NCBI GenBank assembly: GCA_964533805.1
Contig: CAZHMJ010000004.1
Coordinates: forward strand, 1 to 53,238
DNA length: 53,238 nucleotides
Reading direction: 5' to 3'
Origin: an uncultured Anaerolineae bacterium
GTDB lineage: Bacteria > Chloroflexota > Anaerolineae > Aggregatilineales > Ch27
This document shows, piece by piece, positions 32,719 to 38,426 of the stretch. A program made the position numbers and the translations under genes. The notes below the pieces were generated by a model. It had not been told where the DNA came from and did no database searches. It saw only the letters and a list, made by a program, of their open reading frames with translations. Position 1 is the stretch's first letter. The number at the start of each line of letters is the position of its first letter.

Positions 32719-33855
32719 CTACCCCACAAAGCCCAATGCCGCAGCCTCGCTTTCAGGTGTCAAAGGCGCGGATGCCTCGCCCTGCCCCACTGGAGCATAG
32801 TTCAGTCCTTCGTCCATGCAGGCCCCGAACTCACCCAACCCGATCCGGCCGCTGGCCAGCTCCGTCGTGCAATGTTCGAGGTTGAAAGAGAAGTCACCGG
32901 CCGAGCCAAGCTGGCTAAACTGCTGAAGCTGGCCGGTCAGCACCAGCAAGCCAATCACGATCAGGAACAGGCCGCTCACCAATTCGATCGTCTTCATGTG
33001 GCGCTGTAAGCGGCGCAGCAGTCCCTGCATCCGGTCAAGCGCGACCGCAGTCAGCAGGAAGGGCACGCCCAATCCCAGCGAATAGGCGGTCAGCAGCAGC
33101 CCGGCCTGGCTCAACGAACCGCCATTGGCAGCCAGAGTCAGCACCGCGCCATACACCGGGCCGATGCAAGGGGTCCACCCGGCGGAAAAGACGATGCCCA
33201 TCAGGGCCGACCCGGCATAGCCAGCCTCGCTGCGCGCCTGCATCTGGCGGCGTGTATCGGCATACAGCAGCGTTTGCAGGCGAGCCAGCGTCTTCATCCA
33301 GAAATCGCCCGGCCGGGTCAGCGCCCCACCCCAAAGGAGCCAGACCGCGTACAGCCCCACCCCGATCACGATCGGGATCAGCGTCACCAGCGACCAGGCC
33401 AGTACCGCGCCAATAAGCACCTCGACAGCCAGCGTGATCACATAGCCTGAGCCGCCGTTCATCTGGCCAGTCTTGCCCATCACCCAGGCGATGAAGCGCG
33501 GCAGAATCCCCATCACGTGTAGCCCAAAGAGGATGATCACAAGACCACCCAGGCGGGCCAGAATTTCCTGCACATCCACAATCGAGCCGCGCAGGGCCAG
33601 TGACCCGGCCGTGGTCAGCAGGCCAAAGGTCACGAAAACAAATGTGAAACCCAGTACGAAAAAAAGACCATGAATCAGCGTGTTGAAACGGTTCTGGCGC
33701 ACAGCGGCAGCCCCGCCGCCGGCCATCGCCGCGACCTGGGTTGTCACCTGGCCGCCCAGATAGCCCACGTAAGCCGGCACCAACGGCAGCACGCAGGGCG
33801 AGACGAACGACACCAGCCCGGCGATAAAGGCGATTCCGATCGTGATATCAGCCAT
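32719..33855 (-). CDS. ccdA: CcdA/DsbD-family transmembrane thiol-disulfide electron transporter (extended form)
   Basis: FVSPCVLPLVPAYVGYLGG and GWTPCIGPVYGAVL, the two conserved Cys-containing helices. About 140 aa longer than typical CcdA. Confidence 0.85.
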   Translation of the reverse strand: MADITIGIAFIAGLVSFVSPCVLPLVPAYVGYLGGQVTTQVAAMAGGGAAAVRQNRFNTLIHGLFFVLGFTFVFVTFGLLTTAGSLALRGSIVDVQEILARLGGLVIILFGLHVMGILPRFIAWVMGKTGQMNGGSGYVITLAVEVLIGAVLAWSLVTLIPIVIGVGLYAVWLLWGGALTRPGDFWMKTLARLQTLLYADTRRQMQARSEAGYAGSALMGIVFSAGWTPCIGPVYGAVLTLAANGGSLSQAGLLLTAYSLGLGVPFLLTAVALDRMQGLLRRLQRHMKTIELVSGLFLIVIGLLVLTGQLQQFSQLGSAGDFSFNLEHCTTELASGRIGLGEFGACMDEGLNYAPVGQGEASAPLTPESEAAALGFVG

Positions 33856-33961: not shown

Positions 33962-34810
33962 CTACACCACTTCCAGCCACCCGCCCGCCGGCAGCCAGCC
34001 ATACAGCCAGCGCGCCAGCGCGGAGGGGACCTCCCAGCCCGCGCCCGCACCCATCCGGCCAAACCGGTTGTGCCAGTGTACACCATAGACCAGCGCCGGA
34101 CCGGCGCGTAGCACCCATGCCGCACCAGGAAGCAGCGCCGCACTGGAAAGCGCGCGGCATTCCAGGCGGAAGCGGCCTGGTTCCGCTCCGGCAGGCACCG
34201 AAACAGGCAGGCGCAGCATCTCATCCCCATCCTCAAGCACGAGAATGGTTCCGGTCGTCCGGTCGAGCCGCAGGCCGCGCCGGACCGGGTGAATGTCGGG
34301 CGCAGCAGGTGGAATCACCGCCAGCCAGCGATCGGCAGGAGTCCAACCCAGCAACTCACTCTGCAAATCGGGCGCGACCGCCAGCCAGTCCCCCTCGCCT
34401 GCCAGACAATCGCGCACGAGCATCACCCCGCCGTATCCCACACGTTCCACCAGCGGCGCGTCGGCCGCGGCCCATGCCCGCAAGGGAGCTATTGGCGCAC
34501 AAACGCACGCCCAACCGGGGCCAGTCAGCGACGCGACTCCGACCAGCGGCAGCATCGGCTGGGCGTCCTCGCGGTGCAGATACCCCTCACGGGTTGCGTA
34601 CCAATCCTCGGCGACATCCTGTAACGCCACCACGCTGTCCGGCCACAACCGGCCCACAACCTCGGCGTTGGCAGCAGGCCGTTGGTAGATTTCGGCGGCG
34701 GTCAGCGCGCGCGCCCAAACCGGCGCATCGGGGAATTCCGGTTCAATTGGGAAAGCCGAAGCCAGCGTAGCCGCGCCACACCAGCCCAGAAAAGTTCGCC
34801 GTGAAATCAC
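33962..34810 (-). CDS. Tat-signal secreted protein, SH3b-like N-terminal part and a degenerate L,D-transpeptidase-like C-terminus
   Basis: MISRRTFLGWCGAATLASA is a twin-arginine signal. The tail YGVHWHN.FGRMGAGAGWEVP..LARWLY only loosely recalls YkuD and has no Cys at the catalytic position. Confidence 0.45.
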   Translation of the reverse strand: MISRRTFLGWCGAATLASAFPIEPEFPDAPVWARALTAAEIYQRPAANAEVVGRLWPDSVVALQDVAEDWYATREGYLHREDAQPMLPLVGVASLTGPGWACVCAPIAPLRAWAAADAPLVERVGYGGVMLVRDCLAGEGDWLAVAPDLQSELLGWTPADRWLAVIPPAAPDIHPVRRGLRLDRTTGTILVLEDGDEMLRLPVSVPAGAEPGRFRLECRALSSAALLPGAAWVLRAGPALVYGVHWHNRFGRMGAGAGWEVPSALARWLYGWLPAGGWLEVV

Positions 34811-34903: not shown

Positions 34904-35497
34904 TCAACCTCCGGCAAGCAGCCGGTCGAGCGCCGCCTGGAGCTGTTCCTCAGTCTGGAAACCGACCAGGCGCTCCACCAGGGTGCCGTCTGAATCCAGC
35001 AGCACGATCAAAGGAATGGCCGACACCTGATAGCGATAAGCCAGATCGCGCGTCGAAAGGAGATCGGCATTGAGAATGTGAAACGTGACCCGGTCTGCAT
35101 ACGCTTCTTCCAGCCGTCGCACGGACGGACGCATTGCGTTGCAGGTACTTCACCACCGAGCCTGGAACTCCACGAAATGCGGCCGGCCGTTGAGCTCGAT
35201 GGCGTACGGTGTGGCCGAAAGATCCTGGGTCGGGATGAGACCGGCGATGGCGGTCAACGTAGCCAGCGGCCCGGTCATCGTCGGGGCCTCGGTCGGCAGG
35301 ATAAACAGGCTGGGTGGCGGCGTGGCCGTCGCGCTTCCGGGCACCGGTGTGGGCAGCGCGGCGATCTGCCCCCCCAACGGCGCGTCCTGCGCCGGAAGGG
35401 AGCCGACCACCGTCCTGAGGCTATCCACCAGCAGGGTACAGGCTCCCGTCGCCAGGGCAAGTAACGTCAGAGCCAGCAGCAACAGCGCACGTTTCAT
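34904..35497 (-). CDS. exported thioredoxin-fold thiol-disulfide oxidoreductase with an in-frame TGA at the first Cys of the CXXC motif (selenocysteine candidate, or pseudogene)
   Basis: Track ORFs 35150..35497 and 34904..35134 share one frame. The joined read is ...RPHFVEFQARW-TGA(35152..35150)-STCNAMRPSVRRLEE.... Signal peptide MKRALLLLALTLLALATGAC. The cis-Pro region YQVSAIPLIVLL lies downstream. Confidence 0.6.
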
Positions 35498-35575
35498 CCA
35501 CAGCCCCTTTCTCGATCGGGTGTCACGGGATCATTGTACCGGGAAGAGTCGAACACGACGAATGGCACATCTCAG

Positions 35576-36619
35576 CTATTCACGCGCCCGCACCACAATA
35601 GCATGGATCGCGTCGGTTCCATCCGGATAGGCCCCGCTGTCTGGGCCAGGCATCCGGCTCTGGACAAAGCCGCTCTCGTCCGTAGCTCGTACGCAGATCG
35701 AGACGTCGCCGGGCTGCTCTGGAGTCCAGTGGGTATACCACTGCGTCCAGGCATGGCGGCTCACCGCCGGGCGAATCGTGACCGGCATCCAGGTCCCACC
35801 GTCGACGCTCACCTCGACCGCGCGGATGGCCCGCTCGCCGGCATACGCCACTCCTTGTAGCGCGACCGGTTCCCCAACCTGCACCTCACTCTGCGAGACA
35901 GGCGTATCGATCCGCGACCAGGTTTTGACCAGACCGGAAGCCGACCAGCCGTGCGGGGCGCGCTCCCAGGTCCCGACAGGTTCGTAATCGACCAGGGTGA
36001 TAGCCTTGAGCCACTTGGGCGATTTCAGCCCATACCGGCCGGGGAACACCACGCGCAGCGGGTAGCCGTGCTCACGCGGCAGCCGCCCGCCGTTCATCTC
36101 ATAAGCCAGCAGCACCCCGGCATCCGCCACTTCGGTCAGCGGCAGGCCAGTCGTGTACCCGTCCGCCGACTCGAAGCAGAGGTGAGTCGCCTCCGCTCGG
36201 ACGCCTGTCCGCGCCAGCAGGTCGGCCAGCCGGACGCCCCGCCAGGTGGCGTTGCCGATCTGGTCGCCGCCCGGCACGTTGCCGATGCACATCAGCGTGC
36301 AGGTGTCCAGAGCGCTGGGCAGCGTCCACAACTGGGTCAGCGACAGAAACAGCGGAGTCTCCACCAGCCCGCCCACCGCCAGCCGCCACGTACCCAGGTC
36401 GATCTCCGGCGCTTCCGTCCCAGGCCGGTAGGTCTGACGGAAGAACTGGCCGTTGAGCGTAATCAGGGGCCGGTCGTGCGTCAGCGTCATCGGCCGCGAG
36501 GCCGGCTTCCTCCCCGGCTGCGGCGGCAGTACCTCCTTTGGGGGAGAGTCTAACGTCCCGGTCAGGGCGCGGAAGAATCCCCGGCGGGAGAGCCGGGCAG
36601 GACCATTCGAGTCGGGCAT
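35576..36619 (-). CDS. Tat-exported sulfite-oxidase-family molybdopterin oxidoreductase (SorA/SUOX-like with dimerisation domain)
   Basis: Start moved to MPDSNGPARLSRRGFFRAL (Tat motif). Mo-ligand region LMCIGNVPGGDQIGNATWRGVRLADLL. C-terminal Ig-like Mo-co dimerisation segment VQGVAYAGERAIRAVEVSVDGGTW. Confidence 0.8.
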   Translation of the reverse strand: MPDSNGPARLSRRGFFRALTGTLDSPPKEVLPPQPGRKPASRPMTLTHDRPLITLNGQFFRQTYRPGTEAPEIDLGTWRLAVGGLVETPLFLSLTQLWTLPSALDTCTLMCIGNVPGGDQIGNATWRGVRLADLLARTGVRAEATHLCFESADGYTTGLPLTEVADAGVLLAYEMNGGRLPREHGYPLRVVFPGRYGLKSPKWLKAITLVDYEPVGTWERAPHGWSASGLVKTWSRIDTPVSQSEVQVGEPVALQGVAYAGERAIRAVEVSVDGGTWMPVTIRPAVSRHAWTQWYTHWTPEQPGDVSICVRATDESGFVQSRMPGPDSGAYPDGTDAIHAIVVRARE

Positions 36620-36654
36620 ATCTATCCTTCCTGCAGCGATCGAATAAGCTGAGT

Positions 36655-37131
36655 TCAGGCCCGGCGTTCGCGCTGGCGCCATCGCGCAGCCTCGCGCACC
36701 ATCGCCACGATTCCCATCAAACCCTGGCCTTTGCCCATCGAGATGTTCCGGCCAAAAATGGCAAGTACAATCTCGTCGGAGACCTGGGCCACCTGTTCCA
36801 ACGGTTGGCCGGACAGCGTTTGATCGAGAATAGCCGCCATCGCCTTCGCCGACAAACCTTGAGGGTTTTCGACGGCGAAATGGAATTTGAGCGTCCCATC
36901 TGGCCGGTCTTCCGCCCAGACATAAGCCTCCGACTCGCAGAACGGCACCCGGTGATCTTCGGGATAAGGCGGCATCGCGATGCGGGCCGGCACGGGCTGG
37001 AACTGGTCGGCCAACTCGATCAGGTAGGCCGATCGTTCCTCGCGGTCAGTGATCAGGCTGAAATCCTGCAAAACCCGGTTGAGTGTTTCGGGAATGCTGG
37101 GCGAAGTCACGCTTCCATCCTTCCAGTCCAT
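36655..37131 (-). CDS. SufE/CsdE-like sulfur acceptor protein
   Basis: YLIELADQF..., conserved Cys in FCESEAYVWAE, and GKGQGLMGIVAMVR matching the SufE C-terminal motif. Confidence 0.75.
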   Translation of the reverse strand: MDWKDGSVTSPSIPETLNRVLQDFSLITDREERSAYLIELADQFQPVPARIAMPPYPEDHRVPFCESEAYVWAEDRPDGTLKFHFAVENPQGLSAKAMAAILDQTLSGQPLEQVAQVSDEIVLAIFGRNISMGKGQGLMGIVAMVREAARWRQRERRA

Positions 37132-37188
37132 CTTGCCTTGAAGACGGCATGGCGCTTGCCGCCACGATCGACTATAGACGACCCATCG

Positions 37189-38052
37189 CTACTTTTCAAT
37201 CGGGACGCCGACCAGGTTGCCCCACTCCGTCCAGCTTCCATCGTAGTTACGCACATTCTGGAAACCCAGCAGATAAGTCAGCACAAACCAGGTATGGCTA
37301 CTGCGCTCGCCGATCCGGCAATAAGCCACCGTCGGCTCGAATGGGTCAAGCCCCTGCTCCTGCTGGTAGATCGCGCGCAGTTCATCGGCTGTCTTGAAGA
37401 CACCATCGTCCGGGTTGGCCGCCCGCGCCCAGGGGATGTTGCGCGCGCCGGGAATGTGTCCACCGCGCAGCGCGCCTTCGTTCGGGTAGCCCTCCATATG
37501 CGTCCGTTCTCCGGTGTATTCGGCCGGGCTGCGCACGTCCACAAGCTGGCCCTGGGCCTGGACATGGGCCAGCACCTGGTCGCGGAAGGCCCGGATCTGG
37601 CTGTCATCCCGCGGACGGGCGCGGTACGCCGTCGCAGGGTAAGCGGGCTTCTCGCGGGTCAGTTCGCGGCCTTCCTTCTCCCACTTCAGACGGCCGCCAT
37701 CCATAATCCGGGCGCTGGTATGGCCGAACAACTGAAAAACCCAGAAGGCATAGCAGGCCCACCAGTTGTTCTTGTCGCCGTAGAAAACGACCGTGGTCTG
37801 GGGCGTGATCCCGATCCGCGAGGCCAGGGCCTCGAACCCGGTCTGGTCAAGGTAATCGCGGCGGACCGGGTCGTTCAGGTCGGCCGCCCAATCGACTTCG
37901 ACCGCGCCGGGAATGTGACCCGCCGGATATAGCAGCGGGTCTTCGTTGGATTCCACAATGCGCACGTCCGGGTCGTCGCGATGCGCCGCCACCCAGTCCG
38001 TCGAAACCAGCGCCTCAGGCCGCGCATACCCGCGCTGCGATATTTCGGTCAT
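37189..38052 (-). CDS. two-domain rhodanese, thiosulfate sulfurtransferase type
   Basis: Tandem rhodanese domains. Active-site loop CRIGERSSH (CRxGxR type). RBS AAGGAG. Confidence 0.9.
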
Positions 38053-38088
38053 GACAAGAAACTCCTTGGTCTATTTAACACGCCGATC

Positions 38089-38123
38089 AAAACAAAAAGC
38101 CGCCGGGAGACTGTCCGGGCGGC
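38089..38123 (-). terminator. intrinsic terminator inside the 5' leader of the rhodanese operon (attenuator)
   Basis: Minus strand: GCCGCC-C-GG-acagucu-CC-C-GGCGGC followed by UUUUUGUUUU. It ends 36 nt before the rhodanese ATG and upstream of its RBS. Confidence 0.65.
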
Positions 38124-38147
38124 CGCATTCATAAAACCAGATCGCCA

Positions 38148-38255
38148 TCACTGCGGTTGAACAACCATCAACCCCACCCAGGCAGGACAGGCTCTGTCTG
38201 GACACGGACAGTCACAAACGCCAACAACGGGAGGGAGGCTCTGCTGCATGTTCAT
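38148..38255 (-). CDS. candidate leaderless 35-aa Cys-rich leader peptide (MNMQQSLPPVVGVCDCPCPDRACPAWVGLMVVQPQ)
   Basis: The ATG begins 6 nt after the -10 hexamer, at the expected TSS. Four UGU Cys codons fall within 10 codons. The stop lies 24 nt before the terminator stem. Too short for the ORF track. Confidence 0.35.
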   Translation of the reverse strand: MNMQQSLPPVVGVCDCPCPDRACPAWVGLMVVQPQ

Positions 38256-38261
38256 GGTCAC

Positions 38262-38289
38262 AGCATAACATGCTCACGACAAAAGTCAA
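38262..38289 (-). promoter_or_regulatory. sigma70-type promoter TTGACT-16-(TGT)TATGCT for the rhodanese operon leader
   Basis: Read on the minus strand in the only AT-rich island of the spacer. An extended -10 TG is present. Confidence 0.5.
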
Positions 38290-38327
38290 GTATTTATGTC
38301 ATTTTAATCATGTTTACCCCGATAACC

Positions 38328-38335
38328 TGTATAAT
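38328..38335 (+). promoter_or_regulatory. extended -10 promoter TGTATAAT for the M28 peptidase gene (divergent from the rhodanese promoter)
   Basis: A perfect TGnTATAAT about 92 nt upstream of ATG 38427. The -35 is weak. Confidence 0.45.
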
Positions 38336-38426
38336 GGGTCTCGGCCGGCCGGCGATTGGCCTGCGACTGCCCGTCCGTTCACCCTGAGTCACGGCATTTC
38401 CGTCCACAGATGTTACAATTATCCCT

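Follow-up and report, generated by a model that had tools for sequence, protein, structure and literature searches.

A candidate leaderless cysteine-codon attenuator upstream of a rhodanese operon in an uncultured Anaerolineae bacterium

Elements of the leader

We analysed a 53,238-nt stretch of contig CAZHMJ010000004.1 (assembly GCA_964533805.1) from an uncultured Anaerolineae bacterium, hereafter the window, which has a G+C content of 63%. A 374-nt spacer (38053..38426) separates an M28 peptidase gene on the plus strand (start 38427) from a divergent minus-strand operon that begins at 38052. The genes of this operon, for a rhodanese, a SufE-like protein, a sulfite-oxidase-family molybdenum (Mo) enzyme and a thioredoxin-like protein, are all sulfur-related, as would be expected of genes under a cysteine attenuator. 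An earlier note on this DNA had proposed that a promoter, a leaderless cysteine (Cys)-rich open reading frame (ORF) and an intrinsic terminator in the spacer form such an attenuator of the operon. We found all of its elements (promoter, ATG, ORF, Cys codons, hairpin and U-tract), with coordinates that were right to within one base. The proposal held up, with the elements conserved in relatives, the Cys codons biased towards UGU, the ORF associated with a terminator and no riboswitch matched.

The leader elements are read on the minus strand. A sigma-70-type promoter (38262..38289) consists of a -35 element, TTGACT (38289..38284), and an extended -10 element, TGTTATGCT (38270..38262). The distance from the -35 element to TATGCT is 16 nt, and the promoter scan gave a match of 9/12 with the TG present. 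The ATG of the ORF lies at 38255..38253 and its A is the seventh base past the -10 element, which agrees with the earlier placement of this codon at the expected transcription start; the spacing is kept in relatives. Directly upstream of the -35 element is an AT-rich element, GGTAAACATGATTAAAATGACATAAATAC (38290..38318), which is kept in relatives (loci L161-L172) with the consensus GATAAAnnTGATAnAAAT. This would be an UP element or else the operator of a DNA-binding regulator, and in the latter case it would add a second control layer.

The leaderless ORF (38148..38255), MNMQQSLPPVVGVCDCPCPDRACPAWVGLMVVQPQ, has 35 codons and stops at 38150..38148. Codons 14, 16, 18 and 23 specify Cys and are all UGU (38216-14, 38210-08 and 38204-02, which form a CxCxC motif, and 38189-87; together 38187..38216). 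Four cognate codons are thus clustered within codons 14-23, as in an amino-acid attenuator. A dedicated scan of the 53-kb window found no other Cys-cluster ORF followed by a terminator.

The intrinsic terminator (38089..38124), likewise expected of an attenuator, comprises the hairpin GGCCGCCCGGACAGUCUCCCGGCGGCU (38124..38098) and the U-tract UUUUGUUUU, which runs to 38089. The hairpin has a free energy (dG) of -17.1 kcal/mol and begins 23 nt past the ORF stop, and the U-tract ends 36 nt before the rhodanese ATG. Since the promoter scan found no promoter within these 36 nt, the operon would need read-through. The neighbouring M28 peptidase gene is divergent, so that no upstream gene needs this terminator, as had been pointed out earlier. 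A search of Rfam 15 at gathering thresholds gave no match in the window, and hence no riboswitch, T-box or Cys-leader family. A lenient search returned only the trpB motif (20.4 bits against a threshold of 59, E = 3.2), mainly over the hairpin and U-tract.

Conservation of the leader

Close relatives were collected by a protein search for rhodaneses 81-86% identical to that of the window, and their contigs were fetched. They gave ten independent loci including the window. Nine are syntenic (divergent M28 peptidase gene, rhodanese, SufE and Mo enzyme) and L173 lies elsewhere; the syntenic relatives belong to Chloroflexota and probably to the class Anaerolineae. Eight loci bear a leader (L161, L162/167, L163-165, L166/168, L169, L171, L172 and the window). 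Common to these eight are the promoter, a leaderless ATG 6-7 nt past the -10 element, an ORF of 28-40 codons, a Cys cluster and a terminator, so that the Cys ORF and terminator, which the earlier note had proposed looking for in relatives, are kept in all of them. This recurrence indicates that the elements are functional and did not arise by chance.

The Cys clusters of seven loci are CDCPC (window), CICTC, CICLC, CMCLC, CMCMPC, CMCMAC and CLCSC, and that of L171 is looser (CPPC..CC..CC). The Cys cluster is the sole conserved peptide feature in the 8 close relatives and in 12 more distant leaders. The rest of the peptide is unrelated among relatives, a pattern that fits a sensor ORF and not a folded protein.

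We aligned 10 orthologous leaders (alignment A1), six of which make up three near-duplicate pairs; the leaders were not reliably alignable outside short blocks. The invariant columns of A1 were TTGAC, TG.TA..CT and ATG. In 12 Chloroflexota leaders the ATG stands 6-7 nt past the -10 element and has no Shine-Dalgarno (SD) sequence. With no SD sequence and an ATG at this distance from a kept -10 element, translation would be leaderless. Hand-checking of 12 leaders showed that a TTGACx-17-TAxxxT promoter sets the ATG 5-9 nt past the -10 element in 9/12 (in L102, a GTG and then an ATG).

A wider survey compared the rhodanese protein with one genome per species and a metagenome collection, which gave 160 loci, 151 of them usable. 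On the sense strand, Cys ORFs (at least 3 Cys in 7 residues) were found upstream of 11/151 orthologous rhodanese genes. The background was 4 on the antisense strand and 2.96 +/- 1.5 (maximum 7) in dinucleotide shuffles. A terminator-like hairpin with a U-tract was present in the 250 nt upstream at 11/11 Cys-ORF loci, compared with 37/138 others (Fisher p = 1.6e-6). In 20/20 Cys-ORF leaders examined, a hairpin and U-tract follow 23-54 nt past the leader stop (in the 12 hand-checked leaders the hairpin begins 23-48 nt past it), and the stem sequences vary. A terminator in every leader despite changing stems would be difficult to account for without selection for termination itself. The distance from the first regulatory codon to the terminator is 72-117 nt across leaders.

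The leader Cys codons also differ in usage from those of the genes. They number 44 UGU and 24 UGC (44/68, 65% UGU), against 96 UGU and 278 UGC (96/374, 26%) in the long ORFs of the same loci, giving an odds ratio of 5.3 (p = 1e-9, uncorrected for relatedness). In the window, UGU accounts for 4/4 leader Cys codons and for 25% of those in long ORFs. The in-frame Cys codons and the UGU bias argue for translation of the leader ORF. UGU is read through a G:U wobble by the single tRNA-Cys(GCA), which would sensitise the stall site.

Leaders of the same architecture were found in distant Chloroflexota (L001, L003, L007, L011 and L085). Cys leaders were also present in contigs carrying a rhodanese most similar to those of Gemmatimonadales (L101, L102, L107, L120 and L139, as well as L049 and L030 with CxC), and an analogous leader occurs in one Cellvibrionaceae genome (L039).

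Predicted pairing of a conserved block with the terminator

Alignment A1 contains a further block, (U)GCCYGG(N)GNGG, located 10-20 nt past the Cys cluster and complementary to the terminator 5' arm CCGNCCGGG. Its CCYGG core falls in frame 0, 1 or 2 among relatives, indicating that the block is conserved as nucleic acid and not as peptide. The corresponding segment of the window, CUGCCUGGGUGG (38185..38174, transcript nt 71-82), is a candidate antiterminator strand; it could pair with nt 134-145 of the 5' arm through 8 bp, CUGGGUGG:CCGCCCGG, plus CUG:CAG.

The duplex between the entire upstream leader and the 5' arm was compared with whole-upstream shuffles, and z was near 0 in these GC-rich leaders; that comparison was therefore replaced by one restricted to the region that a Cys-stalled ribosome would free and a terminating ribosome would cover or cut off, scored against dinucleotide shuffles. 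In eight leaders the block-arm pairing gave p = 0.12 (window), 0.035, 0.037, 0.062, 0.085, 0.041, 0.34 (L171) and 0.78 (L172), and the combined p was ~0.002. The region past the cluster paired with the 5' arm better than an equal-length region before it in 8/8 leaders. L172 was fetched after the prediction; it shows the predicted promoter, ATG, CLCSC cluster and terminator, and its block is weak.

The earlier note had named a different switch, a 9-nt complementarity between the Cys-codon segment GACUGUCCG (38213..38205) and the loop and upper stem of the terminator, CGGACAGUC (38117..38109). This complementarity exists. As a switch we rejected it, since 11% of shuffles of the Cys region are as good and it has no counterpart in relatives; nt 71-82 are better supported.

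We also carried out the folds for a stalled and a free ribosome that had been proposed. With the ribosome footprint masked, equilibrium folding kept the window terminator in most states, and its probability fell to 0.42 solely for a stall at Cys23; such folding cannot decide the switch. A clear switch was obtained for L007, L102 and L107, in which the stalled state had no terminator or a sequestered 5' arm and the state with the ribosome at the stop had the terminator. The antiterminator strand consists of the last ORF codons and the stop in L102 and L107, and lies directly past the stop codon in L007. In the stalled-ribosome folds the conserved block pairs with the 5' arm. When no pairs were allowed across the bound ribosome, a stall at the cluster left the 5' arm a competitor with a dG of -20 to -45 kcal/mol, and a ribosome at the stop left one of 0 to -12 kcal/mol; part of this contrast is trivial, as more RNA is free when the ribosome is stalled.

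Several results weigh against a Cys attenuator working through this block. Two of the ten close loci, L170 and L173, have neither leader ORF nor terminator, and the distant L003 has just two Cys codons. In the window alone the antiterminator pairing is not significant (the p of 0.12 above), it fails in L171 and L172, and the combined p ignores relatedness. The whole leader is no more stable than shuffles (z = 0.2), and the best duplex of the entire upstream leader with the 5' arm is, as noted, unremarkable. Equilibrium folds retain the window terminator in nearly every ribosome state (P = 0.86-0.92). A ribosome at the window stop would not cover the block, so the OFF state depends on the assumption that the ribosome acts as a barrier. 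In addition, an alternative local hairpin (nt 73-88/95-113) would permit the opposite logic. Taken with the results above, the combination of sensor ORF and terminator is well supported, and the role of nt 71-82 as a putative antiterminator is moderately supported.

Proposed mechanism and alternative explanations

We consider it likely, from comparative sequence evidence, that the leader is a leaderless, ribosome-mediated transcription attenuator of the rhodanese operon that senses Cys-tRNA. For the transcription start, the translation of the ORF, the ribosome stall and the role of the block, we infer the following course. Transcription would start at or next to the ATG at 38255, and a 70S ribosome would translate the 35-codon ORF of the leaderless mRNA at once. 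With plentiful Cys-tRNA(Cys), the ribosome would pass the UGU cluster, reach the stop and sit on or between nt 71-82 and the terminator. The hairpin at 38124..38098 would then form and the polymerase would halt at the U-tract, leaving a transcript of ~165 nt. With charged tRNA(Cys) scarce, the ribosome would stall on the UGU codons (nt 40-54) and leave the downstream block free to pair with the emerging 5' arm; no terminator would form and the polymerase would read into the operon. The direction of this response, on under Cys limitation, is presumed by analogy with classical attenuators and with the mycobacterial cysA2 operon.

The same parts could work with the opposite logic, switching the operon on under cysteine sufficiency or excess, which we regard as unlikely. 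A ribosome at the stop (nt 106-108) would mask nt 95-113 and free nt 73-88 for the 5' arm, giving read-through, and a Cys-stalled ribosome would let the hairpin 73-88/95-113 form and with it the terminator. Minimum-free-energy folds do show this local hairpin with the stop codon inside it. When pairs were allowed across the ribosome, the 5' arm was pre-paired with a probability of 0.74 at the stop and 0.71-0.79 when stalled. A rhodanese and an exported sulfite-oxidase-family enzyme could, moreover, equally dispose of excess sulfur. However, the local hairpin is not conserved in alignment A1, and the folds of L007, L102 and L107 give the classical direction. To our knowledge, starvation is the signal for every well-studied amino-acid leader peptide that carries a run of cognate codons, which also counts against this logic. 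The homologous mycobacterial operon, too, is turned on by cysteine limitation (10.1101/834739).

It is improbable, in our estimation, that the Cys ORF regulates without the terminator, through masking of the SD sequence or through polarity caused by Rho or mRNA decay, with the hairpin serving to stabilise or punctuate the RNA. Masking is the mechanism demonstrated for the mycobacterial Ms5788A (10.1101/834739), and when the window leader is folded as the full read-through transcript, the rhodanese SD sequence has three to four of its bases paired. The pairing of the Cys tract with positions -22..+3 of the rhodanese gene was, however, no better than in shuffles in 13/13 leaders (fraction as good 0.25-0.99), and regulation of this kind would not readily account for a canonical hairpin and U-tract in 20/20 leaders despite changing stems.

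The ORF might instead be an independent gene for a Cys-rich micro-protein, perhaps one that binds a metal or persulfide and works with the rhodanese, with the operon transcribed from elsewhere. In favour are a promoter of its own for the ORF, a terminator 23 nt past the stop, CxCxC spacing that the close clade preserves, and a very weak ferredoxin-like match (E = 0.04-0.05) for one leader peptide. Against this, the peptides share no sequence beyond Cys, range from 13 to 40 residues and vary in pattern (CCPTCCC, CCC, CCMC, CYCCC), and a search of the leader peptides against Pfam and NCBIfam found no family match. The block past the cluster occurs in three frames and is kept as nucleic acid, and one would not expect a rare-codon bias where selection acts on the gene product. 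Between the U-tract and the rhodanese ATG, 36 nt leave neither room nor signal for a promoter, and the gap is 25-53 nt in several relatives. We judge this reading slightly less probable again than regulation without the terminator.

Least probable by some way is that the ORF is incidental to a metabolite-, protein- or tRNA-binding RNA, or that the ~165-nt transcript is a trans-acting small RNA: attenuator-derived small RNAs such as rnTrpL exist (PMC6614838) and the short transcript might have a second function, but no Rfam family was matched at threshold, the leader is not unusually stable, has no conserved structured core and is unalignable beyond the promoter, ATG, Cys codons, block and terminator, and the in-frame, UGU-biased Cys codons at a conserved ATG would be left unexplained.

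Comparison with known systems

The closest precedent is mycobacterial. Canestrari et al. (2020) reported that leaderless polycysteine ORFs of Mycobacterium smegmatis relieve the attenuation of cysteine-related operons, including that of cysA2, under cysteine limitation, and stated that such cysteine attenuation mediated by upstream ORFs (uORFs) was previously undescribed (10.1101/834739). The ORFs (Ms5788A/Rv0815A) belong to a 'Cys ribulon', and the Cys tract masks the SD sequence of the next gene without a terminator (10.1101/834739). The earlier note had called Cys-keyed attenuation predicted and poorly documented; the predictions exist, as described below, and the mycobacterial work in addition provides an experimental precedent for the same enzyme class.

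Both systems have a leaderless Cys-rich ORF as first cistron before a thiosulfate sulfurtransferase (cysA2) operon, and the sensor, ribosome pausing on Cys codons, is proposed to be the same here. They differ in output, since the terminator is conserved here and pairing between Cys tract and SD sequence is absent, whereas the mycobacterial mechanism is translational and has no terminator. The window Cys codons alternate (CDCPC...C) and none are consecutive, unlike those of mycobacteria; consecutive Cys are seen in the close relative L171 and in the distant L001, L007, L011 and L085. The hosts are Chloroflexota and not Actinomycetota, and the rhodanese gene is followed here by a SufE-like gene, whereas the mycobacterial operon starts with Ms5788.

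The leader resembles those of the Escherichia coli trp and Salmonella his operons in having a short ORF with clustered cognate codons, a hairpin and U-tract within tens of nucleotides, a segment able to pair with the terminator arm and a similar geometry. It differs from them in that the start is leaderless and not led by an SD sequence, cysteine would be sensed, no clear 1:2 pause or anti-antiterminator hairpin is evident, and the antiterminator statistics are moderate.

Three predicted systems share parts of this design. The uORFC-8-2 motif upstream of cysS in Rhodobacterales is a predicted attenuator with Cys codons in a short uORF and a U-run terminator (PMC8632094). Both features recur in the present leader; uORFC-8-2 differs in having two tandem Cys codons, mostly UGC, inside a conserved stem, a cysteinyl-tRNA synthetase as target and alphaproteobacterial hosts (PMC8632094). 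For cysS of Deinococcus deserti, transcription starts at the AUG of a short Cys-containing ORF and attenuation has been proposed (PMC4007540). A start at the AUG of a short Cys ORF before a cysteine-related gene, predicted for the window, is a likeness; the D. deserti peptide has 10 residues and two Cys, and its target gene and phylum are different (PMC4007540). Seliverstov et al. (2005) described, by comparative genomics, short ORFs with Cys runs upstream of cys and cbs operons in Actinobacteria (PMC1262725). These also precede sulfur and cysteine genes, but no terminator hairpins were found for them and Rho-dependent termination was suggested (PMC1262725), whereas the terminator is the most constant element here.

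By these comparisons, the leader would fall in the known class of leader-peptide attenuators, working in a trp/his-like way, and is not of the mycobacterial translational type. It combines a leaderless Cys ORF with a classical terminator before a rhodanese operon in Chloroflexota; no new principle is involved. Cysteine is the amino acid with the least documented leader-peptide attenuation, its sole known tested case being mycobacterial, translational and terminator-free. The leader described here and its relatives would represent a leaderless version based on a terminator, found in Chloroflexota and Gemmatimonadota, phyla with few cultured members and almost no known gene regulation. It provides a regulatory annotation for an unannotated 374-nt spacer and predicts that the rhodanese/SufE-like/sulfite-oxidase/thioredoxin operon is part of the cysteine-starvation response. 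The leaders also offer natural variants of leaderless translation-termination coupling, with 2 to 6 Cys codons, two leader-free relatives and one extra-Cys strain.

A broader idea, which we put forward tentatively and think doubtful, is that CysA/SseA-type rhodanese operons repeatedly and independently gained Cys-codon leaders, in Chloroflexota, a Gemmatimonadota-like group, a gammaproteobacterium and Actinomycetota, with different outputs: an intrinsic terminator here and SD masking in mycobacteria. If true, rhodanese would be a near-universal member of a ribosome-sensed cysteine-starvation regulon, and in the present lineage the same switch would also act on a probable selenocysteine thioredoxin and an exported enzyme of the sulfite-oxidase family. 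On this view, the CxCxC peptide or the ~165-nt attenuated RNA might have a second, trans-acting role.

Variant leaders

The two leader-free close relatives differ from each other. In L170 (2322-2500; rhodanese 84% identical), the -35 region lies ~35 nt before the rhodanese ATG and the -10 region is shortened and degenerate. In L173 (1370-1500; rhodanese 81% identical), a DUF433/DUF5615 pair lies upstream and a radical-SAM/SPASM gene downstream, and the AT-rich repeat is retained before the rhodanese gene even though the leader ORF and terminator are missing.

L163, L164 and L165 are near-identical contigs from three samples. Leader codon 19 is CGC in L163 and TGC in L164 and L165, a change from Arg to Cys that places a fifth Cys codon beside CMCLC. 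This may be a tuning polymorphism.

A second family of Cys leaders (L102:1842-2010, L107, L101, L049 and L030) includes MMAYTMCCACPCSMPHLPGRRP, MIYTMCAACPCSMPHLPGRRP, MAPYAKACLCSM... and MTAGRAKACLCSG.... In the folds of L102 and L107 the conserved last codons and stop, CCGGGAGGCGGCCGUAG, act as the antiterminator strand, the opposing terminator is very strong (dG ~-26), and the logic of stall and stop is clean. The Cys ORFs of L039 (1960-2330) and L139 are not leaderless. They start 1-2 nt past the stop of an upstream gene or overlap it (TGATG), and the upstream gene in L039 is SufD-like. A terminator follows each of the two ORFs, MMIIMICYCCCKN and MTCAPSMHMPCCCDRC..., whose position suggests that translational coupling feeds the sensor ORF. 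A long imperfect-repeat array, GTATACCTGTGTACTTGTCTACTT..., preceded by an inverted copy, lies upstream of the rhodanese gene in a Caldilineales metagenome-assembled genome (MAG; L017:3600-4000) and is unrelated to the Cys leader.

Genes of the operon

The whole operon spans 34904..38052 on the minus strand and possibly extends to 32719; its gene order recurs in relatives, and its genes were assigned from Pfam matches, a PDB sequence search and their translations. A greedy long-ORF gene map of the window was set aside, as it had chosen shadow ORFs on the wrong strand. The first gene (38052..37189) encodes a CysA/SseA-type two-domain rhodanese with the active-site loop CRIGERS, and its SD sequence AAGGAG (38067..38062) and ATG lie at 38050..38067. 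A PDB sequence search showed that the nearest solved structures are named rhodanese, thiosulfate sulfurtransferase or SseA (E = 1e-94 to 1e-116), with bovine rhodanese at 1e-30. Several of these nearest structures are presumably mycobacterial CysA/SseA proteins. The protein search gave 7,997 homologues at E <= 1e-80 among 8,000 candidates scored, and the closest relatives were Chloroflexota MAGs, mostly Anaerolineae. A look-up of the exact window rhodanese sequence found no record. By analogy with cysA2 (10.1101/834739), the operon may be tied to cysteine supply.

The SufE-like gene follows at 37131..36655. The third gene (36682..35576) encodes an exported Mo oxidoreductase of the sulfite-oxidase family with the twin-arginine motif SRRGFFRAL. 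As listed, this gene starts 28 nt inside the SufE-like gene; an internal ATG is probably the real start.

The thioredoxin-like gene (35497..34904) contains an in-frame UGA. Two ORFs that had appeared separately, one of 115 aa and one of 76 aa and thioredoxin-like, form a single frame (34904..35497, minus strand) split by a TGA at 35152..35150. The UGA takes exactly the place of the first Cys in the thioredoxin motif (...HFVEFQARW-UGA-STC-NAMRPSVRRLEE), W-UGA-S[TA]C is kept in L162, L163, L167, L169 and L171, and a hairpin, CCGUC-CGUGC-GACGG, lies ~24 nt downstream of the UGA. A tRNA scan of the window found no tRNA, and so no tRNA-Sec there. The gene probably encodes a selenocysteine-containing, lipoprotein-type thioredoxin, with the hairpin as an element resembling a selenocysteine insertion sequence (SECIS). 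Next on the minus strand are an ORF (33962..34810) with a signal like that for twin-arginine translocation (TAT), RRTFLGW, near its start and, after it, a CcdA/DsbD-type membrane protein (32719..33855). The distal half of the operon thus looks extracytoplasmic.

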